Shown: positions 9,029-64,000 of the stretch, piece after piece
How positions within the stretch are numbered: the stretch's first letter is position 1
How the letters are laid out: each line of letters starts with the position of its first letter
DNA from: Paecilomyces variotii
Taxonomy: Eukaryota
Length of the DNA: 64,000 bases
Direction: 5' to 3' (one strand)
Assembly: GCA_004022145.1 (NCBI GenBank)
Contig: RCNU01000001.1
Program-made: the position numbers and the translations under genes
The notes under the pieces: generated by a model
What the model was told of the DNA's origin: nothing
Databases searched by the model: none
The model's input: only the letters and a program-made list of their open reading frames with translations

Positions 9029-10102
9029 GACCTCTGGAATCTTTTCCCCTGTTGGGAGTGACGATCGCCTTATCGCGGTCTCGTGACTGGTTGCTTTTCC
9101 CCGGATCCACCGGGACGCCGTCGCTTTTGCCTCCAAAACAAGTGCAATCTTCACAACGCGCTGGACATGGTTCTATTAACTATTCTACTCTTTAGTCCTC
9201 TGCATGTGTTCTTCAGCTCTAATGAGCTGTCGCTATGACCATGGCCGTTTTGTGCCTCCCAGATACAGATGCAGCCTGGGAACTGGCGCACGCGGTATCG
9301 ATGGATTTCCTGGTGCAGCCGAACACGAGCTTACCCGTTATACAGCATGAAGAAAAGACAAGCAAGACCGCTTCTGCAGAGAGGGAATCGATGATCCAAT
9401 ATCCAGTAATGAGTGGATTCCGGCTTTCCTCTGACAATGTGGAAAGTAAAGTGAGAGTGGCTAGCTGCCAGTGGCGTTGCTCAGGGGGGAGAATCATAAG
9501 TAAGCCGGTGATAAGGGAATCAGGAATAGATTATCACATCTCGATCGCTCGCTCACTCACTAGGGTTCCGATACTATATGGAGTAGTCTTATAAGTACAG
9601 CGGGGTCCAACCGGTTTGTTTCACGCTTTCACTGCCGCTCTCTTTGCCCCTGGTGAGATCATATATTTAACTAAAGCTCGGATCCTTTTGCGATTGCTTA
9701 TCGTTGGCGTTTATGCAGCTGCTAGTTAGCACTGCCAACAGCAACCGGGATCATACTTAGTACTTGAACGCATACCATTATTGGCGTCGATGGCCATGTG
9801 TTCTTGACTGGTCGCATTTGATTCTTTTTCACGGTTAGACAAGTGTATTAACAAGCCTCGGGACTGTTGAACTTGTACTATACATCAACACCTGGACTAC
9901 TCTATTTCTGTCCTCTCCTGCTTGTCAGTTGACTCGCTTCATTTCTTTCTGCTACCAGGGTCGCAGTGCGATTGACCCTCAATCGATATCCTTGTTCTGA
10001 TCAGGAGGGGATATACGATCTTTCTCTCTCTCTATCTCTCTCTCTCTCTTTCTTTCCTTTTTTTATATATATAGCTGAGGTTCAATACGATTCAAGGTCA
10101 CA

Positions 10103-11745
10103 ATGGACGCCATGGACGAAAAGAAGGCGCCTTGCACGACGACTCCGAGCCAGGAACATGGCGCCCCAGAGGAGGGAATCATCCTCAAGGACCAGCAGGA
10201 AGGTCTCGACAAACTGGGTTATACGCAGGAGTTGACGCGAAATCGATCGCTTATCACCTTGCTCTTCCAATGTCTTGCCATGGCCGCCATTCCCTACGGT
10301 GAGGGTGGCCCTCTGCTGAGTGCGATCTATGGCGGGGGTCCACTATCGATATTTGTTGGCTGGATTGTTGTCCTCGTGCTGGATGAGTGTGTCGCCGTCT
10401 CTTTGGGGGAGCTTGCCTCGCGGTATCCTACCTCTGCTGGGCCATACTACTGGTCCTACCAGATCGCCTCCAGAGGAAAGACAGTTCTGTCGTTCATCAC
10501 TGGTTGGGCCTGGCTGGTGGGCAACTGGACCATTACCCTGTCTGTGAACTTTGGTTTCGCATCTCTTCTGTCAGCCGTTGTGTCGATGTATCATCCCGAT
10601 TGGTCTGCCAACAGCTGGCAGCTCCTGCTCATCTTCTACGCTGTGATCCTGAGCTCCTTCGTCATCTGTACGTTCGGAAACCGCTTCCTGCCCATGGTCG
10701 ACATCATTTGCGCCGCGTGGACTGCTATCAGCATAGTGATCATCTTGATTGCTCTCTCTGTCAAGGCGGACGTTGGCCGGCATAGCGCCGGTTGGGCCTT
10801 GGGCCATTATGATACGAGCTTCTCGGGTTGGGGCGGCTTTACCTTCTTCATCGGCCTGCTGCCACCTGCCTATACATTCTCGGCTATTGGAATGGTCTCA
10901 TCGATGGCAGAGGAGTGCGCTAACCCGGCTGTCAAGGTGCCGCAGGCTATCAGCCTCTGCGTGCCCGTTGGCGGCTTTGCCGGTTTCTTCTTCATTCTGC
11001 CTATCTGCTTCACCATGCCGCCGCTCGCGGAGCTCATCAACGCGCCTGCCGGTCAGGTTATCCCGTACATCTTCAGCCGGGTGATGGGCAGCCCTGGTGG
11101 TGGCCTCGGCCTGATGTTCCTCGTCTTGGTCATCGTCTTATTCTGCTCCATCAGCATCACTGTCGCCGCCTCCCGAACCACCTGGGCCTTTGCGCGCGAT
11201 GGTGCCCTTCCCCTGTCCAGCGTCTGGGCCCGGGTCGACAAACGCCTCGGTGTGCCCGTCTGGGCCCTCGTCCTTCTGACTGTGATCCAGATGCTTCTAG
11301 GTCTCATCAACCTCGGAAGCAGCAGTGCGTTCACGGCCTTCGTCTCCGTCGGTGTGATAGCCTTAGCCGCCAGCTATGCCATCCCCATCACTCTGAGCCT
11401 CATCCAGCGCCGTCGCGAAGTGAGTCGTGCGCGCTGGAACTGTGGCAACATCATCGGACCAATCGTTAACGTTATTGCTATCGCATGGATCTGTTTCGAA
11501 CTGGTTCTCTTCAGCATGCCCACCGCTTTACCCGTCACGAACGTCAGTATGAACTACGCCTCGGTTGTCTTTGCAGGCTTTATGGCTATTGCAGCGGGGT
11601 GGTATATCATTTCTGCAAGGAAGAGTAAGTTTCGTCCTGGTCTCCTGACTAGTTTTCTGTCGTTTGACTCTTTTACAAAAATTATTCATATACTGACTGT
11701 CGAACAGCTTATAAGGGACCTCCTGAATCTGATGGTCTTGAGTAA
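10103..11745 (+). CDS. APC-superfamily amino acid/GABA/choline permease; exons 10103-11625, 11708-11745
   Basis: LGYTQELTR, ELASRYPTSAGPYYW, MAEE and SRTTWAFARDGALP motifs with ~12 TM helices. A final GTAAGT..CAG intron gives the C-terminus TYKGPPESDGLE*. Confidence 0.9.
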
Positions 11746-12263
11746 GAATAAGGACGGAAGTTAGTCTATTAGTTGGGGATTCTTCTTGTCGATATGATCA
11801 GTATATACAAAAGAGATAGTTTGATACTATTAATATAAATACCTCTTCGAGTTCTATAATTATAAATGCAAATGAAGAACAATAAACGTTGCATTATGTA
11901 CTAGGTAGAATTCCTCCATCGATACGAGTAATGTGCAAGCAGGGTATTCTATACTAGCGTATCATATCATGCCATGGATCACGGCAAAACCTTCTAATTA
12001 AACAATCCAGATTCTGCTCTTGAAGAAGATTAGGCTCTTATATAGAATGAGCTCGTTCGTAGCCGGGGCTCAAATTTATCAGCATTTAGAGACACCACCG
12101 TAAACTATCTATTCACTGCCATGTCAAGACGACGCCATGAAGCGAAGGATCGTATGCTAATTCTGCAACGAACAACCATGTGCATGTCCGCAAGTCTGCT
12201 TAAAACATACCATGAACGCAAAATTGGAAAGGAGAAAGGAAGAAATACAAAGTCGACATGCTT

Positions 12264-14460
12264 TCAAGCGGTTTTCACCCGCTCGGCAAATCGTACATCC
12301 CTTCGCAAGTGTGACGGGGCCCGTCGCTCTGCCCTCGTGTTCACAGATGACGAGAGGAGACGATATGTTGAGCGAGGACGAGGGCACCCTTTCAGAAGAT
12401 AATCCTTGCAGCCATTCGCCTTATCCTGCATTTGAGACAATCGCCGGCGAAGCTCCATCGATCTGATGCGATCTTCTGCCTTGATTACAATCATATCGTC
12501 TATGATGAGGTGGAGTAGGTCGTGAATAAGTTGCGAGCACTGCGGCAGAGTGCGAAGCTCCTCAACCCACGTACGAACCCCACGGCGTACTTCGGCATCA
12601 TCACCAGATGGAAGAACAGTAAAGAAGTTATCCTCGCTAATGCCCAGAGCTGAAATCTCACTGCGGTGCTCGGCGAAATTCTCGATCTCCGCGTACCCCT
12701 TTAGGAGCCAGGTGATGAACTCAAGGTACAGACAGCCGAGGCTCCAGATGTCGTACACGCGAGAGACGGGTCTGAAGATTTTGCATTCGGGAGGTTCGTA
12801 AGTAGGGGAAAAGACCACACCGGTTGGGTCGATGTTTGAGCGAGAATCACGACCGTGGAATCTCCCAAGGCCAAAATCAGCGATCTGTAAAACACCATCC
12901 GGATCATCAATGCCGTCCATGAGCTGGAAAAACAGGATATTCTCAGGCTTTATATCGCCATGACGCCCGAATATCTTCTCTTCCTCGTCTAGTTTTATCT
13001 CTGAAATTACCTGCATGTTTGCGTCCCGGTTGACTAGGGATACTGGCTGCGAGAAGGTCGGACGAAACCCGTGGATATGCACCAATCCGTCGGCTATTCC
13101 TATCATCTGCTTGAGCGTCCAGCGGATGGTCCGTTCGTCAAATGGTGGACGAGGCCGCTGCTCCCAGAAGGTGCGGAGATTAAAGTCGGCGTATTGAAAG
13201 ACAAAATGCCACTCATCCCTGTGACGAAAGGAGGCCAGCAGCTTGATCAGATGGCTATGAGTTGCGATCCTCCTCAGAGCCTCGTGTTCTTTTTTGAATT
13301 CCCCTTCATCCAAGGACTTGAGCTTTTTGATCGCTACCAAGGGGATGTTGCCCTGCACAAGAGTTAACTTGATTTCCCTGGCGAATGGTATACATGGATA
13401 ACGTACTTTTCTATCTCGCTTCAGGGGCAAGTCATGATGCGCGTGATGAATCCGGCAAGCAAACACCTTGCTATATGCACCTTCCTTTACTTCGTGGTTC
13501 TTGTCGTCATCTAATAACTTGACGAAAGGTACGATGCGATCTTCCAGATTATCGCTTCCCTGATACTCGAAAAAATGCGCCGAAATCCACTGCTGTTTTT
13601 CGTCGAATTTCTCTCTCTGTCTCCTCTGCCAGCCACTCATACACTGGACTGGCTCATAGGCGTCTTCTCGTTTCACATGTAGCCGGTAATCGCTATCGTT
13701 CGGTGGGCGCCAAAAGGGAATGTTTCTGTCACAAATGCGTTCTTCAAGAAAAGCTTCAATCTCCCGGGGCTTCTTAAGTGAGACAAGGATCGCAAAAAGC
13801 CCTCTGGCCTGTTTAGATGTACATTCCGCAATGTCGTCGGCCTTGTGCTGGCCGAGACCTTCATTTTGAAGAATCACTCGGACGGTTTCTCTGGTGATCA
13901 GTCGCTTCAGGCTATCTCGTGGGATGAATTTCTGACGTCGATCGTAGGAACATTCAACGCGTGCGTCCTCGAGTTGCTCCTTGAGGGTCTTGGCCATAGT
14001 GTTTACGGATAAGATGCTGTTAGAACGAGATCGTGATGTGGACTCTCGTGTTTCCATCTGGATTGGGAGAGAGGCAATTCCAGAATTGTCTAGTGACAAT
14101 GTAGGGGACAGCCCTGAACGTTGGCTTGAGACGGGTCTCATGTCTCCATTAGATGAAATGCCTTCAATGCTGGTCTTTGGAGAATGGAGTACTTTATCGT
14201 CTGGTGATATTATACCAGGTCTGTTCCCCGCAGTCTCGGAGTTGGTGGAAAGAGATCTGCCAGCCTGATATACATTTTGGCCTATATAGGGCGCGGGAGA
14301 TGAAGGTGAAGGGTGCTAGAAGGCAACCAAATGGGTTGATCTTGTTACAAGGCGATGATTACCTGACAGTAGCGAAGAATGTACATGACAGGCAACTGAC
14401 TATTTGGTTGGGCAGCGAAGGGTTCAAGTGAAGCTTCTTGTTCATCATATTTTCACCCAT
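12264..14460 (-). CDS. Fungal-type Ser/Thr protein kinase; probable exons 14460-14401, 14316-13407, 13352-12264 (5' exon tentative; minimal ORF starts at 14141)
   Basis: EGAYSKV Gly-loop, VAIKKL, RHGDIKPENIL, IADFGL, PTYEPPE and DIWSLGCLYLEFITW: all catalytic motifs intact. There is a 54-nt GTACGT..CAG in-frame intron, and the frame stays open upstream of 14141 to a CTAG acceptor. Confidence 0.88.
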
Positions 14461-15276
14461 TGTCTGCTATCCGAAGCGCCCTACGTAATTTTCATTAGCC
14501 GCGGGATGTGCAGTTCATTAGCAAGAAAGCTTCCCATGTGCTGGATGATCTAAGATAGAGAGCTGGTGCATTAAGCACATACGACCTTGTCTGGGTGCAC
14601 CTTTCGCCAGAGCCTCAGCCTAGATGCACATATGCAGTCCGGCACTATTGCGATCAAGACCAAGAGCCTCTTGCAAAAAAGCGCCCCGCTTCTGCCTAGT
14701 GGGATCAATGTGTTCATGTGAACACTAAACTTGTCTATGAGATGTGATGTTGAGAGCTGAAGATCTAATTATCCGAGCGGCGTTTGGGTAGGAAGATAAA
14801 CCCTCCTAGGACAGCTACATTACAGTGACGCAGAATAGATGCTCAAGGCGTTTACCCTGAACCACCCTATGAAGAATATATCTTATCGATCAATAGACCA
14901 AACATGTTCTAATTCTGAGGCTGAAGATGTCTTGAGTGCTCTAGCCATTCATTGTGACAGGATATATTCATCCCGTGTCTTGCAGGGAACTCGATTGGCC
15001 GGGCTGACTCACCGCAGCCTGTTATAGAAGGATCAAACTGTCGGGTTACTAAGTACTATTTGTTGTTTTTTCTTCTATAGGCTTTTTACGAAGTAAGAGG
15101 TTTGGTACTCGTTTCTTTTTTGTTAAGCTCTCGATGTCCCCCTTCCCCTGGGTGCCGCAGTAAAGAATGATAAGATCTAAATAGTACAATTATAACGACA
15201 TAGTAAGCATGTTTTAAAACGACCTCTATAACCTGGTATGTTCCAGCCATCTACAATCAGCCATGGCTACTACAGA

Positions 15277-17320
15277 TCAGTGCTTCAGCATTTTTGTATT
15301 GGAAGTGCATACTCCCTCCGTCAACACATCAGGCAAGGAACCACCCGGCACGATTCCCGTTTCCAGATCTGAGGACTTTCGCGATGGCTTCCATGGCAGC
15401 AACCAGCTAAGAAGCTTCACTTTACCGAGTGTTCTTGGCGGTTGGGCCTCATTGTCTGGCAATTCCACAGTTATAGTACTCAGATGAACGAACAACCACC
15501 AAAGGACGACCGTTAGAAAGGTCAGGGGTATCGAAATAGCTGCGAGAATCCAGGCTTCTGTCGATACGTGCGTCTTTCCATCATTATCAGTTTTGACGAA
15601 CGTCGTTGAAAAGAAGTTCTGAATTTTCTCAGTGATTGTGTCGTCTCTAGATAGGAACAGGATTAACTTACGGCGACAACAGTCGTTGGAAGATAGACCA
15701 AGCTGATGACAGTGAGAACCTTGACAGCTGATGCATCTAGAGCACTTTTGAGCTGTGAATAGAATAGTTAGACCATAAGTATTATATAGTGGTCGGATGT
15801 AGAGCTAACTAACCGTAAGAGCTGACAGAAACTTGCCATCCCGTTGCGATGCGATGCCTAAATCTTTCAGGGCCTTTGCTTCTTCGTAGTCCAGGAGGGT
15901 TGACAACTGAAGGATAAAACTTAGTAAATGCATGTCTTGATAATCTTAAAGACAGTCGACTCACCATTTGTGCAGTCGATCGCACTTTTTCTGACAAGAA
16001 CTCGGCACGTTGGACGTACATATCTGCTTCTCGAACATAGCTGTTAAACTCTTCCAGGAAGTACACACAAGTCTGCACTCGCTCAGTGGAATTATCTAAG
16101 CAGTCCTTTTGACACTGGTCGCGGACCTGAACTATATTGTTCAACATGTTTACGAGGATCATCTTCATATCGATGGTGTACTCTTCGAGCTCGTGGATGT
16201 GTTGGCGATCGAGAAAGGTGATGTTTCCATCCACCTGCTGAGCCACTGATCTGTCTTTCATCGAGAGCTGAGCAAGTAGAATCTTTTCTGTCTATTATGT
16301 GAAAAAAATCCCTCACAGTGTAAGTGGGCTTGAAATTGTTTCTCAGAATTGGAGCTACCGACCTGTTCCTTCAATTTGTTCTCCACCCACGCCATGTAAT
16401 CTTTCCAGTCCCTCAAGCTATCAGTCATAAGAACCCAATGGACATACCAAGGCGAAATGGGTTCTTCAGCCTCTCGTGCTCTCTCAACGCCGCGAAGAAT
16501 ATGCCTCTCAGCAAATAAAGATGGTGCCACTAGCAGAAATGTAGATATTGGTCGGATCTCTCGAGAGGTAATAGCTAAGTCTGGAATGTCACCAGGGGCA
16601 ATTTTATGATATATTGCAGTCTGTCGAATCGACCAGGGCGATTGGCCATCAGTGAGATCTCGTCCATTGGGTTCCACGCGTCGGAGAATATACGAAAATT
16701 CTACATCCGCGTCAGCTATGGTTCAGACTGAATGGATGGCAATAGTAACTAGGACTGACCGCAGGCATTATTGGATCCTGTTCTTCCTACGGCAAAATCG
16801 CGGAATTGAAACCCTGCGAAGCCAAATTCGTTCTCGTTGTGTCTCCAGCCAAAGGAAAGCATGTGTTGCCAGAAACGCGGAAATATTTTGTATTGCCTTG
16901 CAAATTCTTCGAAGACATTGCGACAGATCTTGAGCCTTCCCCAGGTATTCTCGTGTCGGATAATGAAAACTTGAGATTGATGTACTGAGGCCTGAACTTG
17001 AAGTTAATACAATACAATACTGAATAACGCTCGGTATTCAAGCTGGCCTCAAGTAGTATAGAATCTGAAAAGATAGATGCTGCAACAACGCATATTGAAC
17101 TACATACCTTTTTCAAAGAATAAAGCTGCTCAAGGTCCGCGACCACCTGTATTGTAGAATGGTCTTTATCATTTTCCCCACACATGCTATTCCCACGTGC
17201 ATCTAGAGGTAGATAATATAATTGAATACCATCATCGGTAGATCTAAACAAAAAGGGGGCTTTTTTATTGACTTTGATTTCCAGTGATGCTCTTTCGGCT
17301 TCAAGACACATTGAAGCCAT
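15277..17320 (-). CDS. CorA-like (2-TM) membrane protein, ~541 aa, 7 exons: 17320-17108, 16991-16760, 16700-16363, 16291-15965, 15906-15814, 15752-15672, 15618-15277
   Basis: All six GT..AG introns join without stops (1626 nt). The product has SYILRRVEPNGR..PWSIRQTAIYH, a long helical stalk, and a CorA-type C-terminus DASAVKVLTVISLVYLPTTVVANFFSTTF...WILAAISIPLTFLTVVLWWLF. Confidence 0.82.
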
Positions 17321-18260
17321 TATCACCACTTAATTTATCGCCGGTGTTAAATCTGAACACCTTGGCAGAATCGATATCGTTACAGCGATTTAAACATAAC
17401 CCTTCTATATTGCCTTTCAAGTCTTCCTTCTTCCTCAGACTGTCTAAATAAGCCTGGTAAGAACTCTACGGCGAAGTTCGCAATCAAATCAAGTATCTCC
17501 CTTCCTTTTCACCCCACGCCCGGAAGCCCTTCACTCGAAGATGCATTTTCAGCTCGAAAACTGTGATTTTTCTTTTTTAGCATTATGCATGCCATTTCAG
17601 CTGCATGTCAGAGCCTCACACAACCCCGCCTTCGGCAATATCTCAGGGTGAGCGGTAAGAGGACCGGGTTTGCGGGAGAGTAAGCGCATACACAGTGCCA
17701 CTCGGTTGTGTCTGCTGCACGAGGCAGCAAATAAAGAGCGAGCTAGGCAATGAAGGTGGGCATAACACAGACCGCATCATGTCAGCCTTTATAACTCATG
17801 TCTAGTTCTTTTTACAATTTTGTCGACTTCTCGCTGGATACCTAACTTAGCCCATGTGATCCTGTGGGCAAGACAGCCTTCTATCAAAGATGCCCTTCGC
17901 TAAGAGACGTTGACGGTTCACCAGCGCTTGGAATGTCAGGCATGAATGCAGTACTAGGGTGGCTCGTAAGTTCTTATCGTTATGCATCACGAGGCATCCT
18001 TGCTAGCTTGAGAATGGCTTCATAGGTGGTTGGAATCTTGCGCAGGGAAAGTCGGTGTGAACATCACTTGACTGTTTGAGTTAATATGCGGCTGTTATTA
18101 AAATGACATCTTTTCATTGTACAAATCCGAAAAAGCGACTTCCGCTAAGTATGCAGTATGACAGCATTTAAACGAAAATAAGTTGAAACATGAATGAGAG
18201 AGAAGAAAAAAAAAATAATTGATAACTATCGGTAATCTGAATGGTGACTGGGGATATTGG

Positions 18261-18637
18261 TCATCGCCATCTTGCCATTCTTTGACAAGAACTAATCTGA
18301 CGCTGTGTAGTTATATCAGAACCTCTCACGAGCAGAATAATAAAAAAAGAAAAGAAAAGACAAACTGAGTCTTACAGCGTTAATAATATCGTTCGAGGAG
18401 GACGGCCTGTAAATCTTATAACGGTTGAGCCTCAGCTTTTAGTGCAAGAGCGAGTTAGCATACTTAACATGGAAGATCATAGATCAGCAATTAGGTGATT
18501 CAGACCTCAACGAGAAAGTTGTTTTGGCCTTTCTCCGATGTCCCGTACACGTCTCGAAGGAGTTCAATAAGTGCTCGAGGATTGATATACTTGCTCTCGA
18601 TCACTTGAGGCTCAGGATTATACCGATAGTTTGACAT
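18261..18637 (-). CDS. Microprotein B, 77 aa, 3 exons (18637-18506, 18435-18376, 18302-18261): MSNYRYNPEPQVIESKYINPRALIELLRDVYGTSEKGQNNFLVE/LRLNRYKIYRPSSSNDIINA/RQISSCQRMARWR
   Basis: Two phase-0 GT..AG introns with GCTAAC and TCTGAT branch-like sites. Clear similarity and the same intron placement as neighbouring microprotein A. Absent from the ORF track. Confidence 0.72.
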
Positions 18638-18839
18638 TTCGGACCAGTTATTGACGTGGGAAGTTGAACGTTGCATTTTGATAAAAATAATATTGCTTTA
18701 TTTGATGGACAAGGTTATAGGAAAAAGCATGTATTGATTGATTATCTATACTGTGAAAACCCCCTATGGAAAACTTTCGGATTGAGGCTTATTGCCATGG
18801 ACGCCCCTATTTATAATCCTACTCTATCATGTCAAACAT

Positions 18840-19261
18840 CTAGCCCTCGGTAGAACATGATTGAATCTGCTCCTAAGTATTGACGGGTCAAGATCAGCGG
18901 TAGCGCTAGAAATGCAGGACTAGGACGCAAGGGTAGGATGCGCAATGAGCGAGGCTCGGATCATACCTCGGTCAAATGAGCAGGAGCGACAATTACGAGC
19001 CGCCCAAGACGCTCCTATCAGGAGGATGTCAGCACGGTAAGAATAATGTGACCAGTTAATTGAGCTGAATATCTTGCGCTGAAATGTACTTCCCTGTCAA
19101 GAGAACACAGGTGTCACAGTCTCGGACAAGACCATGTGCACGAAGGAGAAAATGATTTGACTCACTTTAACTTCAAAACTTCCTTCAGGGAATAACTGCT
19201 TCAGAAGAGCGATAAGGCGAATGGGTTGGATGTAGCGAGATGAGAGAACTTGCTGGGCCAT
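18840..19261 (-). CDS. Microprotein A, 58 aa, 3 exons (19261-19166, 19014-18967, 18872-18840): MAQQVLSSRYIQPIRLIALLKQLFPEGSFEVK/ERLGRLVIVAPAHLTE/EQIQSCSTEG
   Basis: Canonical GTGAGT and GTATGA donors, GCTGAC/GCTGAT branch sites, TAG acceptors, both introns phase 0. Paralogous to microprotein B. Confidence 0.78.
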
Positions 19262-20270
19262 GGTTCCTTTCAGCTGTGTGAATCCTTGAATGATCATATG
19301 GCGGATCTGTGATCCTGATTGCGCCTAGGGAGGCGAAGTCTATCGAATATACGCCTTGAGCGTCTCACTAAATATAATCACCTCGAGGATATTCACCGGT
19401 TCGTGCGGTGGCAAAGTTCCTCTCTCCTTCGCCTCAAGTGTAGCTGAATGGAATCAGAGCATTTTGTTATCATCCAATGCTAATGCAAATAAGTGCCCGG
19501 TGGCAGAAGCTGAAAGTTGGGGGCACAAGGTGTTCAAGGAGGAAAGTATGATCATGCAAGTCATCAACGTGTATCATTCATAGACTAATACTGCAAGACG
19601 TGGCTGGATCTTAGTAGATTTAAATTCCCAAGTATGAGCCGAAAATTACCTTGCCAGTCTTGATCACCTTGAGGCTCTAATGAGAGCTCTAAGGTTGTCT
19701 AATTCCAATTTGTCAGTTGCTTATTTCAGGCAATATTGGATCTGCGTGCAGTAGACCTATTCATCTTGTCACTAGCAATCACTGAAATAATCCCTTTCCA
19801 CAGTTCAGCAAGCCAAGTATCAACAGAAAAGCTGCTTGGATTTTGCCTATTGGGTTCTCATTTATCTACGCTGTTGTCCTCGATCGTCCTCTAACTATGT
19901 ATATCGTTATTCATTGGATCTGATTTTTTTTTTTCTCCCACTACTTGTCTTGAACAGTCGATTAACTTGGAATCGTGTCTTAGAGTCGGGGTTATTGAGT
20001 TATGTCATTGAATATCCTTTGCCCCTCGTCTGGATCAATGCTTATTTGCCTGAATCCTAGTCTGCTTTATCTATTCCTCGCATTTAGCTATTAGACCCTT
20101 TCTCTATTGACATAAGCATGTCGTAGTTCTACGTTAGTAAATCTGATATAATTTGTAATCATAACTTTTTATCGGGGATTCAGCACGTATATAAAATAGA
20201 GCAGGGTATTTCTACAATTTCCTTAAATAGTCTATTTCATGTAAACCAATCGATAAAATTGATCGACCGA

Positions 20271-22216
20271 TTAATCTGAAAACAACCTCCCCAGAATACC
20301 CAGTTCCTCTCTTCGTTTCTTCTTCTCCCTATCTCGCTTGATTTTCCAATACGACGCCCACGCTGCGCCGGTTAGGTAGCCGCCTAGATGGGCCCAGTGG
20401 TCTAACGCAGCGACGCGGAAGGGGGTGAAGAGGCTGATGGCTTCGAAGAGCACGATGCCTGTGAGGAAGACGGAGCCACGGGCAGAGATGGTGTCTTGCC
20501 ACTCGCGAGGGAGGAACCAGAGGGTGAGTTTGTCGCTGAGTTTTGTGTGTTAGTGTTGGATTGGAGAAATTGGGGAGCTTAGGGAATAGGGTACGTACTT
20601 TGAGTGAATCATACACCATGCAGCGACGAGACCGGCAATGGCGCCGGAGGCACCGAGAGAGGTTACGGTCAATTGCTTCGTGAGCACATGTGCGCTGAGA
20701 GAGGTAAGGGAGCCGATCACGCCGGATGCCATGAATAGGGCTAGGAAGTTACCACGGCCGATTTCGTCGTGGACTGAATTAGACGGCGGAGTTAATTTAG
20801 CCCTCGAACTGGAAAAGGAGTCGAGGTTATGAACTTACGTCTTGTTCCGATGAACCATAGAATCACCATGTTTGTAGCAAGATGCTTCACCTGCTGATGA
20901 CTGAAGACACTGCCCACCACGCTCAACGCGTGCGGGTAGATAGGCACGCTGATGAAGTACTTGTTGAGCATTCTCCATGCGGGTGGCCAGAATTTCCACA
21001 AGGTAAAGACACTTAGGTTGAGACCTATGATGGCCAGGACAGTTGCTGCCGCCGGCGGAATGTCTCGCCACATACGGTCCTTGTGAGATGGAGGGTCATA
21101 CGTCTCGGCGAACACATAGCACAGACCAAGGGTAAGCAGGGTCACGCCAAGAGCAGGAAGAATTCGGCGGGCCTAGCAGAAGTCAGTGGAGCCGATTATA
21201 TAGTTGCGGTACGCCGGGCACTTACGGTTGTCAGGTTCGAGGTGTCGATATCATTGTTCGTAGCGCGCAGATGATGCTTTTGGATCCAAGCCAGCAGCGG
21301 ACGCTCACTGGGATCAGCACGGGGACGAGCTTTCAGGATCGTTAGAAACTGGCCATATAAAGACACCCCAGATGAGAAGATAATACCCACCCTCAACGAC
21401 CGCTGATTCTTCAAATTTCTGCAGTTCCGTATTCCTTTTCAGCGCCTTGGTGATCTTCTCGTAATCCTTGGCTTCGCCCTCCAGCCATTCTTTGCGCTTC
21501 TGCTCCTGTTCCGCCAAGAGGCGCGCCTCGTTCTGTTCTCGATATTCCTGCAAAACACTCTTTCCCCAGGGATCATTGGCCTTGCCCAATTCCGCATCAT
21601 AGTGGCCGCTCTGCGGCTTATACAGGCTCCTCAGCCTCTCCTCTTCTTCTTGTTCCTCCCGTTCGATCCGTGCGAGAATAGCAGCATCCTCGTCCATTGG
21701 GCGATTCTTCCGCAGCCATTGTAGACCGGCATCGATAACGAACGGGCGCGCAGAGCGGGCTATGTCGGACGGAAGGTCGAGGTCGAGAGTACCGTTGATA
21801 CGACGGCCTTGTAGGACGGAAAGAATGCGATTTCCCATTGCTGGAGAGATTTTATTCGGGCCAAAGATCTTGTTGATCTCCGCGGCGGAGAGCGGTTTAG
21901 AGCTGATGGGGACGCCATGTTCGACCGGTTCGTTGGGTTTGGGAGCTGGTGTACTTTTCGTCTTAGCAGATCTCGTAAGGAACGAGGAAGGAGGTTGATT
22001 TGAGTTGAAAGATGTGCGGGGGAAAGTCAAATATCCCAGTCCTAGCGGGGAGATGAGCTTTCTCTGTGAACTATAGAGGCGCTGCGCGGGCAACTCGCGG
22101 AAGTACGAGTACGAAACCGCCGGGCGGAATATGGCTGGGCCAGAGAGGAGAGAGTTGGAGGATGCCCGGAGCCCCGGGCATGGGATCCGCCATCCTATGG
22201 AGAATACATTGCTCAT
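20271..22216 (-). CDS. PCP1: Mitochondrial rhomboid intramembrane protease (Pcp1/PARL-like), multi-exon
   Basis: Arg/Ser-rich presequence, FSHQ..HLATNM, catalytic SLGASGA and DHWAHLGG across ORFs 21314..22222, 20792..21145, 20550..20732 and 20271..20453. Confidence 0.85.
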
Positions 22217-22885
22217 CTCCACGGGATTATGAGGCTGACGTTGCGCTGCACGCCGGAGGTTTTGCGGCGACTAGGACGATCGAGATGCGATGGGATGCGC
22301 GGAGCTTCCGCTCTGGGTTTCTCCGGCTTCCGGTCGATTGTTCCGGACAAGACAGCGAGAGATCAACAAGACGGACTCGAGGCTACCTGCAGTAAGAAGG
22401 GGAGCATGTAGTAGTGAGGTTGACGGTATTATCTAGGAATATGCTATGGAAATCTGCTTTTTGATATTCCGCTTGGGGATCTGCTTATGGTATGAGTCCT
22501 AGTCAGTATGTACCTACTGTACATAGTTCCAACATAGAATGAGTAGATAGCTACCTTTGGACATAGATCCACTTATAATGATCTATTTCCGCATTATCAT
22601 ACCTCATATCTCACATTAAACCACCGTAGAAAGATTGTGCTAAATCAGAATAGTATATATATATTTTTATTCTTGTTTAACGTGATGTATATAACTACTT
22701 CTCGCAGATGCGACGCCACGTGATGATAGCGATAACCGCGATAGCGATCGGCGTGAGCCTTTTCTTCCCCAGACATTAAACTATTAGCTACTGATATTCC
22801 AGAGCCTCTTACCCTCCATCCTGAAATAACCTCATACCTCTGTATTACCGCCTAGCCCTCACAACAACCTCATATAACCTCAACC

Positions 22886-44365: not shown

Positions 44366-46286
44366 TATCACCAATATCACAATGAGGACAGATTGGGGGC
44401 TTCCTGAAGGAGAAAGGTGAGATATCTGATGCAACGGATCGAGCGAAGATAGAGGTGGTGGAAAGACAGGAACAGAATGAGGATGTGGGTTTAAGAAATC
44501 ACTACAGTCGCTTATGGGGTCTTGTGTTATAAGCCAAAAGATTGTGGAAGGGAGTTCCCACCCCTTCTCACTGTAACCTAGAAAAGACAAAGAGAAAACT
44601 ACATAATGCTTGATTGTAGCAGTTTTCTTTGTAGATTTTCAGTTTTCAATTTAACCACTAGAGGCCAATCTTAGATTAGAACTTATGTGTTTACAGAATC
44701 GATGTTTGTGCTATACAGATCGCCGGTTACTGCTTCAAGAAAAGTGAGGTGGGACCAGCAGGTATCCATCGAAAGCATAGGGGGAAATTGACAATATTCC
44801 ACTAGTCTGTCTGTACTTACTCCATAGTTTCTATATATTCTAGAGTGATATCTGAACTAACGTGCATAACAGCTCTAGATATCCTAATAGCTAGTAGTTG
44901 TAATCGCCGTGCGGCCCAGTAGATAAGAAGAGTCAGATAATTACGAACTTGGCGGTAGAAGAGAGAGGGCTTTTTGTTAGCGTTAATGCACAGAGCGTAT
45001 GTATAGGTGATCTGGCATACTGTCTACTTTTATCAAATTTAATTCCAAGGATAGAACTAACTAGATCCTTCAGATCTAGATTATCTGTATAATTAGGAGA
45101 TAAATATAGTATCAGCACAGAAATAATACCGCCTGTTAGAAAGAATTTAGGTGCATTTTGTCAGCACTCACAGCTTCAATAGAGGCAAGTCGCAAAAACC
45201 ACTACTACCCTATACAAACGGTATAAAGGAATCAACGGGAAGCCACCTACATCCACCAATATAGGATCAAAGCAGACACGCCGGAACCAGGGAATGCTCA
45301 GGAATAGTAACAAACACAGTGCTCCAGGCAGCAGTAATTCAGGCTGGAGTCCATGGGCCTCAATAGCTAATAGATGTTGATACCTTCTTATTCTTCAAGC
45401 AATCAAGATCTTATTCCCATATCAGATACTCTTCATATCTTTGCTTCCGTGGTCTTAGATTCCCTATAATTTGAACCCATATTCATTTCTATAGGCATAC
45501 AAAGAATCTAGTAATCAAGTAATCTAGTAACTTCTATCCTATAATTAGGATCCAAAGGACCTGCCGCAAACGGATGATTGTCAGAGCACCTGACGTTCGC
45601 TTTGTGCGCCGACAACTTGGGGAAATGATCTTTATCGCTTGACTACTAGAAGATGGCTAAATCCATCGACTACTTGTGCCCGGGGACACTATCCTGATGA
45701 TCTCTGCCTAAAACACTGTCACTGTCACCGTTTGTGCATTGCCCTGTTCCAGGTCGTCTTCTTTGACCTTAATCTGGTCGAGCAGGTGACTGATGCTGAT
45801 TATTCTATTGGGTGCCCTCTACAAAGAGTAATACCTAGTGGCACTTTGCAGTTTGGCTTGCGATAAAGCATTTGCTGACTGACTGACACAAACCTTTTAC
45901 AGAATACTGTAACTGGGACTAAAATAAAGATAGACAACAAAGCTGGGTCTCCATCCTGCTAATATTCTTGGTTGAAGACTTAATCTAAGGTACGGGTGTA
46001 AGCCTTTCCTAGGTAACCGACTAACCTACCTAGGTAACTAGCGGGCGGGAGACTACCGTAGGTATTATTATTATTAATAGGGCTGATTGGATAACTTAGC
46101 TACATCAGAGTGACCTGAGACAATTTCCGGCCCTGCTGCCTTCAGTGAATGCAAGGACTTAACTGTTACACAAGCTGTCATTTCTCATTTTTACCTTACT
46201 CGATCTTTTGCACTGCCATTTGAGAATTCTACCACCATTCTTATTCCTTATTCGAATTTCACCACGTTTCTCATCTTTACCTCAGA

Positions 46287-51840: not shown

Positions 51841-53936
51841 GTATCAGGCGGAGGAAATAAAACATTGGCCGGTGTGGTGGGAGCATCCTTGATCTTTTTT
51901 CTTCCTGTCTTTGATTGGCATTATTGAACTGTTGGCCTGGTCCCTTTCTCGGTTGACCGCTATTTTCCCCTTTGCGTTTGGTTTCTTTGGTTTTGGACAG
52001 TTATCAGGCCCTAGAGGCGCTGGCTGGATGTGCTTTGAAAGAAGAGATACCTCGGTACAGATATCCTTGTGAGTTACATTGTCATAGTTTCTTTTTGTTT
52101 TTGGAGAGAGCCAACAAAAGAAAGAGCATCCCCTAATGGTAGTTATCTCGGATAATAATAATAAGGGGAAAAAAGAGCTTCGAGAACATCATTTGGATCA
52201 TATCAGTAGGAATAACGAAAAGGCGCCTTGCGAGCCTCCTAGATCTACGGAGTACCGGGAGTCGATCCCGACCAGGTAAAATCTGGGGAACCCTCGCATC
52301 CTTAACCCGGATGCGCGGGAGCTTTGATCTCTCTGAGAGATGGACGAACTTACGAAGGGGGATGGACACGGACCCTTTCTTAAGCGAGACGTCGGAGATT
52401 CAGTAATAATAATAATAATCATAATAATAATCATAATAATCGAATCAGACCAGACCAAAGAAGACCAAAATAATAACAAAAGAATTAGGCGACTGACTCT
52501 GACCGATCGATCGCCCGATTGACAGACAGCGGAGAAGGGACCTTGTTGCGCGCCGGTCTTCATGCCAGTGAGTTTTTTTTTTTTTTTTTTCTCCTCTTCC
52601 TAACACAGGGAAAATTGGAAGTGGGAGGAAAAGGGCCAAAAAAGAAGAAGAAAAGAGGGACTCAACTTCCAAGCCGGCCAGGACCAGTCTAGACGGGTGA
52701 AAACTCTGTCTGATGATCTACATATTATTACATGGCGCAAGTGCCGGTATCGTCCAGTAAGTACATGTACATACATAGTAGGTATTAGGTATTACTCTTG
52801 ACAACTCTGGGTGGGATTTTGGTGGGTTGTTAGGATGAAGGGCCTGGCGCTCTCAAGTTTCCAAGGAAGGAGGGAGAAGAAGTCATGAATAAGAAGGAGG
52901 ATTAAGAGAGAGAGAGAGAGAGAGAGAATCCAGTATCAATTGATCTATAGCACTAGGAGTCCTTGATCGTATATTGATTATTGTGTAATTAATTAACTGT
53001 TGATTTTGTTGAGCCATGAGCCACAAATCGTGGGGGAGATTGACCGGAGAGCCGGTCGCATTTGTGTGATTCACCGCCATCATAGAGTAAAGTGCTCTGA
53101 AGGGAAAGTCAGTCAGTCAGTCAGGAATGCAAGAAGGACAGATCAGACATTGTTGCAAATGTATATATATGATTTATTACTATGAAATTCATAGACAGAG
53201 AGAGAGAGAGAAAGGGGAGAGAGCCTGGAGGGGTGGTAGAATACCTAGACGAATCCATGATAAGAACAAGAACACATCTGGGGAATTATTACGTAGTGCA
53301 TAGGTCGATAACTCATTGATTTCTTCTCCCCCCCTATTTTTTTTTTTACTGGATTTTTTTTTTTTTTTCCAGTATTAATTCAGCCTGTTCCATGTTGCTG
53401 GTTTAAATTAATTATAATTAACTACTACTACTAACTTAACTTGCCTGGTTTACGGGCGACCACCAAGTCACCGGACGCTAAGCATTTTCGTCATTTCTCA
53501 CCTGCGGCAGCTTTCTTCAAACACGCGACTTGCAAACTTCATCATCCCCTTCAAATCTTGCTCCGCCCTCCCTTGGCTTGGTTCCTGAGCATCCAGCCAG
53601 TGCTCGAGATCTATTCTTCCTCTTTTCCTCCCGCCGTTGCAGTGTTCAGTCCAATATTGACCTGCAACAGAGATCCTGAACCGCTCCCCATCGACTGGTG
53701 CACTGGCTCCATCCGCCTTTTTCCCCGCCCAGATTCTCTCTCTACCCATCCATCGGTCCCCAGCGCTACGACTGTGAGCATTAGTCCCCTCGACAGAGTC
53801 TTCACACCCCCGTCCGACCACGTTCCCTGACTGGACTGCGTGCGATAATAGCAGAATTCTCCTGGCAGTCTGTCGTTGTGCATGACTGTTGTCGACAATC
53901 GATCCTTCACTAGACTTCCGTGACCACCTATAAATC

Positions 53937-61777: not shown

Positions 61778-63153
61778 ATGCCCTCACTCACGCCAGAGCA
61801 GATTCAATATCAAATGAGCCACAAAGATGACGACCGAAGAGCAGGAATCGTGGCTTCTATCTCTATCATGCTGGCCGTCGCTTATGGGGCAGTCATTCTG
61901 CGAGTAGTGGCCCGACGGATTGGTAGAGTGCCCTTGAAAATGGATGACTGGATGATTATGGTGGGACTGGTTGGTCAATTGGATGATCGAAAGGATCTGT
62001 AGAATGGTTATACTGACATGGACGACAATAGTTTCTGACTACCTGCTTTGCTATCGGCTGTTTTCTCTGTAAGTTGCGACATTAGCGATGCTTTTCTCCT
62101 CGTGCAAGAACTAAAGACTATGGCAGCTGTCGCCCTTGGAATGGGCAGACATGCCATTATGGTGAAGCAACCGACGCGAATGGCCAAACAGATCCTGACG
62201 AATGAGGTCTTTTACACTCCTGCGTCAACAACCGTGAAATTCAGCATCCTCTTATTCTATCGACGACTATTCCCGCTGCAGAACGGCCTTAACTGGACCC
62301 TACTCGGAGTCGCAGTGTTTTTGGTCGTCTTTGCTCTTGCTCAAATGGTGAGCGTCATTATTCAATGCACTCCCCCAGCAGCACTCTGGGATCCAGTAGC
62401 TCATCCGAATGCTAAATGTGACAATTACTCTCCGGCTCTTTTGTTATTTGCCATTGTTAACGCTTCAACCGATGTCTTCATCCTATGCATTCCGCTACCG
62501 ATTCTATGGAAACTTCGAGTCTCGGCTACCAGAAGGAAACAACTCATTGGAATCTTCCTGCTGGGTGGTTTGTAAGTACATGCGACAGCAGTCATATTCT
62601 GTTTTAGATTGCTGACCAGGTTGTATATAGGGTGTGCGTAGTAAGCATCTGCCGAGTAGGTTACGTGACCCAAGTCACCCTGACAGACCCAAGCTGTGAG
62701 TGAAAAGAGTACAATCAATCAGAAACAGAGTAAACTGACCCGAGTTATATACCAGGGGATGATGTCAACACAGTCATACTATCCGCGGTCGAAAACTGTG
62801 CCGGTGTTCTGAGTGCCTGTCTACCAACAACGTTGCCCATTTGGCGTTACCTGAGACACGGTAAAGCTAGTCAAGAGGAGCCAGGACACCATCTTCAGGA
62901 GTCAGAAAATCCACGTAAAAAGCCATCCTGTAAGAAGAACTGGTACACCGATACCATGCTCCTGAATAGCATTGCGAAAGACGACATTATCAGCGGCTCG
63001 AATCCATCTAGTGAGCACACTCAGTCGACAGTCAAACTTTTTAATCCTGCCTCTGCTATTCGTGTGACTACCGATTTCCAACAGGAAGATGAGATCGTTT
63101 CAGAACGACTGCCTTCTTATCAGCCGTACGAATCCGTTTCTCAGAGATGGTAG
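61778..63153 (+). CDS. Pth11-like / fungal rhodopsin-domain integral membrane protein, multi-exon
   Basis: LRVVARR..LKMDDW, GMGRH, KFSILLFYRRLF, QCTP..LWD..C, TDVFILCIPLPILWKL and VEN..GVLSACLP. Confidence 0.85.
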
Positions 63154-63417
63154 TCTTCCGCAAGTAAGGAGTCTCATTCCATATCCAGGTCGACAAGTAC
63201 GTCAGGATGGAGTCCGCCTGAATATTATATCACGATGAAGTAGCTACCTCACCCTTTGACATCTTTTCGCGGAGTTTCGAACTGCTCAACTTGTCAGATG
63301 ACCATTATAGTATCGATGTTCTGCTAGCTGTCCTCCAAGGGTTGAATGTTGTAGGTCTTCCTTTTCCCGCCGAACTTTCTTCTAGATACTGACCCTGCTC
63401 GTCGTCTCTTACAGCTA

Positions 63418-63790
63418 GGACGCATGTAATGGCTGGCATCACTTAATCTCGATAAAGCATTCTTCCGCAAACTCGCCGCTGCAAATGATCGATATGAAGC
63501 TTTCAGTGGCATTCGAGCGCATGGCAAAATGGGACACAGTAAAGGTGAAAGATGCATTCCATTTCCTGCAAAGGGGAAGAGATCCCATAACCGAGTCTGG
63601 GTTTACGCCCGAAAATCTGGTTTCTGAAGTGAGTCTTTTGATACTTGGAGGTTTGTCTACTCGTTATTTAGTTTACAACGTTCACTAAGCGTGAACGCTA
63701 ACTAACGCGGTTCCAAATCAGGAAACGACATCACCTCCACAGTGATTATTAGTATTCTCTTCACGGTCATTCGAATATATTCTCGAATGG
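63418..63790 (+). pseudogene. Cytochrome P450 fragment (G/H/I-helix region), degenerate
   Basis: KDAFHFLQRGRDPITESGFTPENLVSEVSLLILG, then after an intron GNDITST, resembling the ExxLLxxAGxDTT I-helix. There is an upstream frameshift and no intact N-terminus. Confidence 0.55.
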
Positions 63791-64000
63791 TAGATTGCCG
63801 GGAATGATGAAAATAGTCTGGCACGAAGTGAATTCCACCCGTTCAGTATCGGTCTGTGAAGTTGTGCGAGGAAAGGAATGGTATATCTGATGATTGGTCT
63901 CTAGCAGTTAATCTGAAAGGTTAATTATCTACAGAAACTAACTGCTATATCTAGCACTACATGGGTTCTTTTTGTCTATTCTACTTGACAGTAAGAAGGG

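Follow-up and report, generated by a model that had tools for sequence, protein, structure and literature searches.

A four-gene cluster of filamentous ascomycetes that brings together a GMN-less CorA-fold protein, a protein kinase and two paralogous microproteins

Why should two very small proteins, a CorA-like membrane protein and a protein kinase be encoded side by side and on one strand in the filamentous fungus Paecilomyces variotii, and do their products act together? The question is raised by positions 12264-19261 of a 64,000-nucleotide (nt) stretch of contig RCNU01000001.1 (assembly GCA_004022145.1), the whole of which is called the window here. Six-frame open reading frames (ORFs) and the raw sequence resolve this segment into four intact minus-strand genes, in the order microprotein A, microprotein B, CorA-like gene and kinase gene, running from the A of the microprotein A start codon (19261) to the final base of the kinase stop codon (12264). 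Exon models were built by hand from GT..AG sites and verified by translation; their coordinates are collected in Table 1. An earlier interpretation made without database searches, referred to below as the sequence-only reading, had given the four minus-strand genes, their order and their end coordinates exactly, and had proposed a self-contained signaling, cell-death or allorecognition module. The comparisons presented below show that the genes are inherited together and suggest that they probably form one working unit that has not been described before. To the fuller reading, in which this is a conserved cluster of filamentous ascomycetes whose products act together at the membrane, we give an even chance.

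The evidence that carries this reading is the arrangement of homologous genes elsewhere. A scan of metagenome contigs with a B-type alignment yielded 28 loci, which reduced to 20 distinct ones after collapsing those with at least 99.6% nucleotide identity; these loci were tested by tblastn with the window proteins and by hidden Markov model (HMM) scans. Of the distinct loci, 12 extend for at least 1.6 kb downstream, and in all 12 of them the next gene is the CorA-like one, encoded on the same strand and 763-1383 nt beyond B exon 1; the other eight loci have at most 949 nt downstream of B, too short for this test. A homologous kinase, its N-terminal region included, comes next in all six loci that continue for at least a further 1.5 kb; it is on the same strand, 1029-2152 nt downstream of the CorA-like gene. 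On the other side, an A-type microprotein lies on the same strand 454-1045 nt upstream of B in 15 of the 20 distinct loci, and four of the five loci without an A-type match have no more than 470 nt upstream of B. The A-type profile was trained on 10 of these 15 loci together with microprotein A of the window. The training loci had first been seen weakly with a mixed profile (L014 with an A-only profile), and the independent A-type detections are those in L010, L013, L016, L022 and the L024-26 group, with E values of 4e-8 to 5e-11. Outside the four genes, no ORF of at least 70 aa in up to 10 kb of flank is common to unrelated loci or to the window; some flank ORFs are common to the related loci L013, L018 and L026. 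Most CorA-like segments are 29-41% identical to the window protein and the kinase core is 39-51% identical; values as low as these imply that the arrangement survived deep divergence. The linkage in other genomes, on which the sequence-only reading had staked its proposal, is thus found, and its description of a self-contained, co-oriented module agrees with an order and strand that are kept across loci with unrelated flanks.

Annotated genomes point the same way. Microprotein and CorA-like genes have locus tags that directly follow one another in four P. variotii strains (553/554, 2542/2543, 2240/2239 and 6860/6859), in Rasamsonia byssochlamydoides (4354/4355) and in Lachnellula occidentalis (5608/5609). 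In the Aspergillus thermomutatus protein P0024 an A-type first exon is fused to the CorA-like protein (alignment columns 1-55), which is probably a merged annotation of neighboring genes. CorA-like proteins of Diplodia and Rutstroemia bear the name 'cmgc cdk kinase', which matches the best PDB label of the window kinase; this hints at merged neighboring gene models in some source annotation.

Conserved proximity could also have a simpler cause. The four genes may be co-located for regulation or transmission only, as a chromatin domain, through read-through or on a mobile element, with no joint complex or pathway and with the CorA-like protein as a plain divalent-cation transporter. The non-syntenic flanks would fit a mobile unit, and an RNA contig that bridges the last exon of microprotein B and the whole CorA-like mRNA, described below, would fit co-transcription. 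However, there is no transposase or recombinase among the shared ORFs, and four genes have retained their order and orientation although protein identity to the window has fallen to 29-51%, whereas the neighbors have not been kept. Fungal gene order is normally lost where functional linkage is absent, a pattern known as mesosynteny. To our knowledge, the retention of a four-gene order and orientation across ascomycete classes is rare outside secondary metabolism, and each case that we know of pointed to cooperating proteins. The part of this explanation that concerns plain cation transport depends on what kind of protein the CorA-like gene encodes.

Of 8000 candidates scored in a search with the full-length CorA-like protein, 47 reached E<=1e-3. 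Their sources include Paecilomyces, Rasamsonia, Aspergillus, Talaromyces, Helicocarpus, Zopfia and Lepidopterella, and further Diplodia, Botrytis, Lachnellula, Rutstroemia, Oculimacula, Stereocaulon and Geoglossum. A precomputed match to PF26616 (the 'CorA-like transporter domain' of UniRef names) is attached to the P. variotii protein P0004 and to 42 of the 46 other listed homologues, and a precomputed match to the Pfam CorA family PF01544 to nine of the 47; the local Pfam copy did not return PF26616 at E<=1 for the CorA-like protein. Within the species, searches with the exons recovered proteins at 100% and 92% identity: residues 46-541 of the window protein are identical to P0108 and its N-terminus is identical to that of P0110. 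Judged by these protein identities as well, the DNA is that of P. variotii. The public models of this gene are themselves flawed, since the DTO-strain models begin 45 residues too far downstream, judged by the start that homologues support, and the P0110 model is mis-spliced internally.

The AlphaFold2 model of P0004, based on a 30-row alignment, has a mean predicted local distance difference test score (pLDDT) of 74 and places strands in residues 33-161 and helices in residues 202-388 and 403-430. All rows listed by Foldseek for this model are CorA proteins (best E 5e-7, probability 1.00), and the top 36 rows of a VIA-align comparison are all CorA, ZntB, CmaX or Mrs2. The Z scores are 17.5 for Thermotoga maritima CorA, 16.6 for Methanocaldococcus jannaschii CorA, 16.1 for CmaX, 15.7 for ZntB and 11.7 for Mrs2. 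The best match, at Z 17.5, corresponds to a root-mean-square deviation (rmsd) of 6.1 across 283 residues, and the soluble domains alone give Z of about 16 with an rmsd of about 4, at an identity to solved CorA proteins of 8-11%. The model contains the elements expected of the CorA superfamily: the N-terminal domain is alpha/beta, a long stalk helix runs without a break into the first transmembrane helix (TM1), and a second transmembrane helix lies near the C-terminus.

Gly-Met-Asn (G-M-N) at the outer end of TM1 is the defining signature of CorA Mg2+ channels. In the present family TM1 ends in Y-L-P-T-T...N-F-F-S-T, with Y-L-P-T-T invariant or nearly so in 30 homologues, and the G-M-N position is taken by F-F-S-T (F385, F386, S387 and T388), which is invariant in 30 family members and identical in the window protein. 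The fold is that of CorA, yet the motif that defines the Mg2+ channels is absent, so that the GMN-less CorA-like protein of the sequence-only reading is confirmed on both counts. For the view that the cluster merely keeps a plain transporter next to unrelated genes, these data cut both ways: ZntB and CmaX share the CorA fold and transport other cations, and their Z scores against the model are 14.5-16.1, but GMN is replaced in all 30 aligned members of the family. Together with the retained gene order, we consider an explanation by co-location alone improbable.

Microproteins A and B are related to each other, as had been proposed. Their first exons align (BLASTP E 2e-6) and both intron positions are common to the two genes. 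The length of B is 77 aa when translation starts at ATG 18637, as in the NCBI model P0052, or 90 aa when it starts at ATG 18676. A two-sequence profile of the A and B first exons, run against 1.84 billion representatives, gave 45 of them at E<=1e-3; the family signature is present in 43, and the remaining two (P0058 and P0090) are repeat proteins. By these sequence criteria the microproteins are a family of small proteins of Ascomycota that has no name, and the Pfam scan found no family for them. Many of the matches are ORFs that read through introns, whereas correctly spliced models occur in Paecilomyces, Rasamsonia, Lachnellula and Cadophora. In the public P. variotii records examined, microprotein A is unannotated and was found only as an unspliced ORF from raw assemblies; a homologue search with this ORF gave nothing but the ORF itself. 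Side observations on gene structure are that L007 encodes a full-length A-type protein without introns, and that the Rutstroemia proteins P0053, P0055 and P0056 hold two tandem B-type first-exon domains within 115-200 aa, which suggests a local duplication of the microprotein gene or exon that was read through as one model.

B-type sequences are strongly conserved, with QVIEGQY and an invariant LRLNRYKIY in nine sequences, and in both types a conserved Thr precedes a conserved Cys by 7-8 residues, close to the C-terminal end, which varies in length. When related loci are compared, 34 of the 45 substitutions in B exon 1 are synonymous and 36 of the 45 fall at third codon positions, a pattern that indicates coding constraint and purifying selection on the microprotein. 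The AlphaFold2 model of microprotein B (9-row alignment; pLDDT 80, predicted template modeling score 0.68) has the topology beta-alpha-beta-beta-alpha. No fold relative could be assigned to it by Foldseek (best E 0.076) or by the wide VIA-align comparison (best Z 5.3, against a background of 7-8). A sequence-profile search of the PDB with the microprotein reached a best E of 0.33, and an Atlas search with B exon 1 gave sub-threshold scores of 0.75-0.77.

The fourth gene encodes a Ser/Thr protein kinase, with a Pkinase (PF00069) score of 68 bits against a cut-off of 31.7. Its catalytic motifs are intact: the window kinase and its homologues in five distinct loci all have VA[IV]K, HGDIKPEN, DFG and SPTYEPPE. 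The nearest solved kinases are of the CDK type ('Kinase, CMGC CDK'; E 6e-11), in a match that covers query residues 394-504 only. The N-terminal region of about 245 aa is conserved in the homologues from the same loci and reaches Atlas scores of 0.96-0.97 to unnamed Ascomycota clusters; it has no Pfam match at E<=1. The start was placed at the first in-frame ATG, and the 5' leader, which X1 record 2 (one of the RNA contigs introduced below) covers up to 14408, contains a short out-of-frame upstream ORF of about 21 codons (14275-14210, ATG 14275). In the glycine-loop region, a low-depth joint (8.6) in the same RNA data skips 93 nt at 13454-13546 and has the non-canonical ends GG..CA; an artefact of the assembly is possible, as is a rare isoform. 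The idea that the microprotein resembles a CDK regulatory subunit found no support in the searches and was dropped.

The pairing of two paralogous small genes with an enzyme and a membrane protein also invites comparison with clusters for ribosomally synthesized and post-translationally modified peptides (RiPPs). Microproteins A and B would then be precursors with a large conserved leader and a short C-terminal core bearing Thr, Ser or Cys, the kinase would modify them and the CorA-like protein would export the product or protect against it. Class III and IV lanthipeptide synthetases, which modify by phosphorylation, provide the model for such a kinase. The Thr and the Cys 7-8 residues further on, kept in both types near the variable C-terminus, would suit a core peptide, and an Atlas lead connects the N-terminal region of the kinase to the LanKC N-terminal domain; it is a weak one (0.75, 77 shared features), of a sort that often arises by chance. 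However, structure prediction gives the microprotein a compact fold, with the Thr...Cys segment within a helix, conservation is strongest in the middle of the protein and not in a leader, and a hypervariable core is not evident. No cyclase, lyase or protease was found, the N-terminus of the kinase has no Pfam match at the threshold given above, and CorA-fold proteins are not known as peptide exporters. A RiPP-like cluster is therefore, in our opinion, very improbable.

The gene models receive support from RNA contigs of two independent data sets that were aligned to 11800-19800. One (X1) is a species-labelled run flagged 'RNA? (a guess)', for which the spliced joints imply RNA, and the other (X4) is a food-fermentation metatranscriptome, in whose contigs the cluster block is about 99% identical to the window. 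Five further runs under the same species label (X20-X24) contained almost none of the sampled sequence words and were left out, without counting as a sign of absence. These contigs from X1 and X4 reveal neither strand nor expression level, and contig depth cannot be used to rank the genes. Spliced contigs cover all four genes in X1 and three of them in X4 as well. Ten of the 11 introns appear as joints. Those of microprotein A (19165-19015, 151 nt, and 18966-18873, 94 nt) and intron 1 of microprotein B (18505-18436, 70 nt) are found in both data sets; the six of the CorA-like gene (53, 61, 58, 71, 59 and 116 nt), all with CT..AC joints, are found in X1 and one of them also in X4; the single in-frame 54-nt intron of the kinase (13406-13353) is found in X1 only. 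The two joints in microprotein A correct an initial reading with one intron. The clean splicing that the sequence-only reading had described, and for which it had suggested an RNA check, thus holds for these ten introns but has no joint for intron 2 of microprotein B (18375-18303), which is inside a masked T-rich stretch where one joint was dropped. This intron was accepted because P0052 equals the window translation, because contig 3 of X1 stops exactly at 18302, because the last exons of A and B are similar and because homologues concur.

That same contig (X1 record 3) runs from 18302 to 17107 and onward through all CorA-like exons, and so links the last exon of microprotein B to the whole CorA-like mRNA. 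A contig that spans two genes is no proof of a single transcript; the bridge at 17107-18302 may reflect read-through, bicistronic transcription or merely overlapping untranslated regions. In X4, poly(A)-like loose ends occur at 18715 and at 18056, as would be expected if the A and B mRNAs each had a 3' end of their own.

In view of the above, a mechanism can be considered in which the four products act together at the membrane. Its core would be the CorA-fold protein, with an N-terminal alpha/beta cytosolic domain, a stalk helix of about 100 residues, two transmembrane helices and, in the cytosol, a tail some 110 residues long. The protein would probably be pentameric, as CorA is, and with the invariant F-F-S-T in place of the GMN filter it should not be an ordinary Mg2+ channel. 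The dedicated kinase could dock by its conserved N-terminal domain, and its substrate could be either the CorA-like protein, in the cytosolic domain or the tail, or the small proteins. The microproteins, with their beta-alpha-beta-beta-alpha topology, could serve as regulatory subunits or as ligand-sensing adaptors, possibly with A and B paired, and kinase and microproteins would jointly decide whether the pore or sensor is open or signaling. What we infer in this scheme is the pentamer, the ion flux, which proteins touch and which of them the kinase phosphorylates, as well as the direction of regulation and the physiological role. A more specific version, which is conceivable although we think it rather unlikely, is that of a previously unrecognized kind of fungal membrane effector or signaling system: in response to a cue that they sense, the dedicated kinase and the paralogous microproteins would control the opening of a GMN-less CorA-fold pore. 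In its logic it would be a eukaryotic counterpart of those prokaryotic CorA defense effectors that are under the control of accessory genes. The output of such a system could be stress or defense signaling, or regulated cell death.

A number of points weigh against joint action at the membrane as the explanation of the cluster. The match of P0004 to the Pfam CorA family reaches 11.8 bits (E 0.15), well below the cut-off of 27, and the microprotein fold has no assignable relative that would hint at a role. The metagenome loci were found via the microprotein only, so members of the CorA-like subfamily that occur without partners are uncounted. Locus L023 has 881 nt upstream of B and shows no A-type match in them. 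Some of the loci are related to each other (L014 and L027 at 80% nucleotide identity, L013 and L016 at 78%, L020 and L025 at 91%), and the number of independent lineages is therefore lower than 20. In two Rutstroemia genomes, tandem-domain microprotein models and the CorA-like gene share a contig at accession numbers 10 and 15 apart, so that these two genomes offer no case of adjacency.

The same architecture could instead serve killing: in a cell-death, defense or allorecognition module, a trigger acting via the kinase and the microproteins would open the CorA-like pore and kill or depolarize the cell. The conservation which shows that the genes belong together suits this possibility equally well, and so does the presence of the family in several ascomycete classes with non-syntenic flanks; CorA-fold effectors are moreover known in type III CRISPR defense. 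The variation within P. variotii allows a closer look. The CorA-like gene is present on 25 P. variotii contigs, of which 24 belong to one 90% cluster and the other is that of P0005. Among nine full-length alleles, 31 of 496 sites are variable, and no pair has more than 17 differences or less than 96.6% identity. The variable sites (P0004, P0104-P0112) are densest in the extracytoplasmic loop between the two transmembrane helices (3 of 12) and in the C-terminal tail (9 of 66), compared with 2 of 165 in the central helices, all of these being small numbers; such a distribution would be in line with a death or defense module. However, the deeply divergent allele classes and the presence/absence polymorphism of het loci were not seen for the CorA-like gene in P. 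variotii. Pfam scans of the four products or their exons gave Pkinase-type matches and a weak CorA match only, with no HET, NACHT/NB-ARC, HeLo/HELL, gasdermin or patatin domain. Joint expression of the four genes in culture-type and fermentation RNA speaks against a suicide effector that is kept tightly repressed, and the literature searched gave no link between CorA-like proteins and fungal incompatibility. A defense or death role is unsupported by positive evidence, nothing observed here resembles a het locus, and we regard a module of this kind as unlikely. The cell-death and allorecognition part of the sequence-only reading is not supported by the allele data or by the scans, which found no death or NLR domains, and neither is its picture of an accessory, polymorphic block.

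How the cluster, read as a set of proteins that cooperate at the membrane, relates to known systems can be seen from three comparisons besides that with the CorA superfamily itself. With CorA, ZntB, CmaX and Mrs2 the CorA-like protein shares the alpha/beta N-domain, the long stalk helix that runs into TM1 and the second transmembrane helix; it differs in having F-F-S-T for G-M-N, a cytosolic tail of about 110 residues, a sub-threshold Pfam CorA score and a gene that belongs to a fixed cluster which also encodes a kinase and two microproteins. Type III CRISPR systems have CorA-family effectors that are activated by SAM-AMP (S-adenosylmethionine joined to AMP), a nucleotide signal made by Cas10. 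These effectors are likewise the CorA-fold membrane output of a multi-gene system, with a cytosolic domain controlled by the products of neighboring genes, but they are prokaryotic, whereas in the present cluster there are no CRISPR genes and the CorA-like protein is accompanied by a kinase of the eukaryotic type and two small proteins. In animals, TRPM6 and TRPM7 are TRP-fold channels fused to an alpha-kinase. They resemble the proposed unit in joining a cation channel to a Ser/Thr kinase; in the cluster, by contrast, the genes are separate, the fold is that of CorA, the kinase is a conventional one and two microproteins are encoded besides. Finally, fungi possess compact cell-death pairs, such as a gasdermin-like protein with a protease, which are also small clusters of a membrane-active protein and the enzyme that activates it. 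Unlike these, the cluster has no gasdermin, HeLo or NLR domains and shows low allelic divergence within P. variotii.

Full-text literature searches, to which subscription-only papers and supplements were not open, returned no description of the cluster or its motifs. What appears to be new, judged by these searches, is the combination of genes and the microprotein family, not the CorA fold or the kinase fold. The microprotein family is mostly missing from annotations or is read through its introns, the fungal CorA-fold family is a large one of no known function that has lost the Mg2+ filter, and the uncharacterized N-terminal domain of the kinase is widespread in Ascomycota. The cluster offers a genetically tractable entry to all three families in a fungus that is used in the laboratory, and it comes with a specific hypothesis that can be tested, namely that a CorA-fold protein is gated by a kinase and microproteins.

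Table 1. Coordinates of the cluster genes, of the transcribed spacer and of the flanking genes in the window
Feature	Position	Strand	Details
Microprotein A	18840..19261	-	58 aa; exons 19261-19166, 19014-18967, 18872-18840 (stop included)
Microprotein B	18261..18676	-	exons 18676/18637-18506, 18435-18376, 18302-18261 (stop included)
Spacer between microprotein B and CorA-like gene	17321..18260	-	unbroken coverage by one spliced RNA contig
CorA-like protein, putative member of the fungal PF26616 family	15277..17320	-	541 aa; 7 exons: 17320-17108, 16991-16760, 16700-16363, 16291-15965, 15906-15814, 15752-15672, 15618-15280; stop 15279-15277
Ser/Thr protein kinase	12264..14141	-	607 aa; exons 14141-13407, 13352-12264 (stop included)
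Amino-acid permease	10079-11764	+	Pfam AA_permease_2, 1.4e-50; flanks the cluster
Rhomboid gene	20271-22270	-	flanks the cluster on the other side

The surroundings of the cluster are as follows. The permease and rhomboid genes named by the sequence-only reading as its borders are both present. The block between them had also been called AT-richer, and a moderate dip is indeed seen, with a GC content of 0.41-0.47 across 14-20 kb versus 0.48-0.54 in adjacent DNA; but the dip does not set the cluster apart, since comparable 1-kb bins (0.41-0.44) occur at 45001-46000, 52001-53000 and 63001-64000. Just upstream of microprotein A, contig 4 of X1 contains a plus-strand GT..AG joint of 72 nt at 19546-19617. 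It suggests a spliced plus-strand or antisense transcript between microprotein A and the rhomboid gene, in the orientation opposite to that of the cluster.

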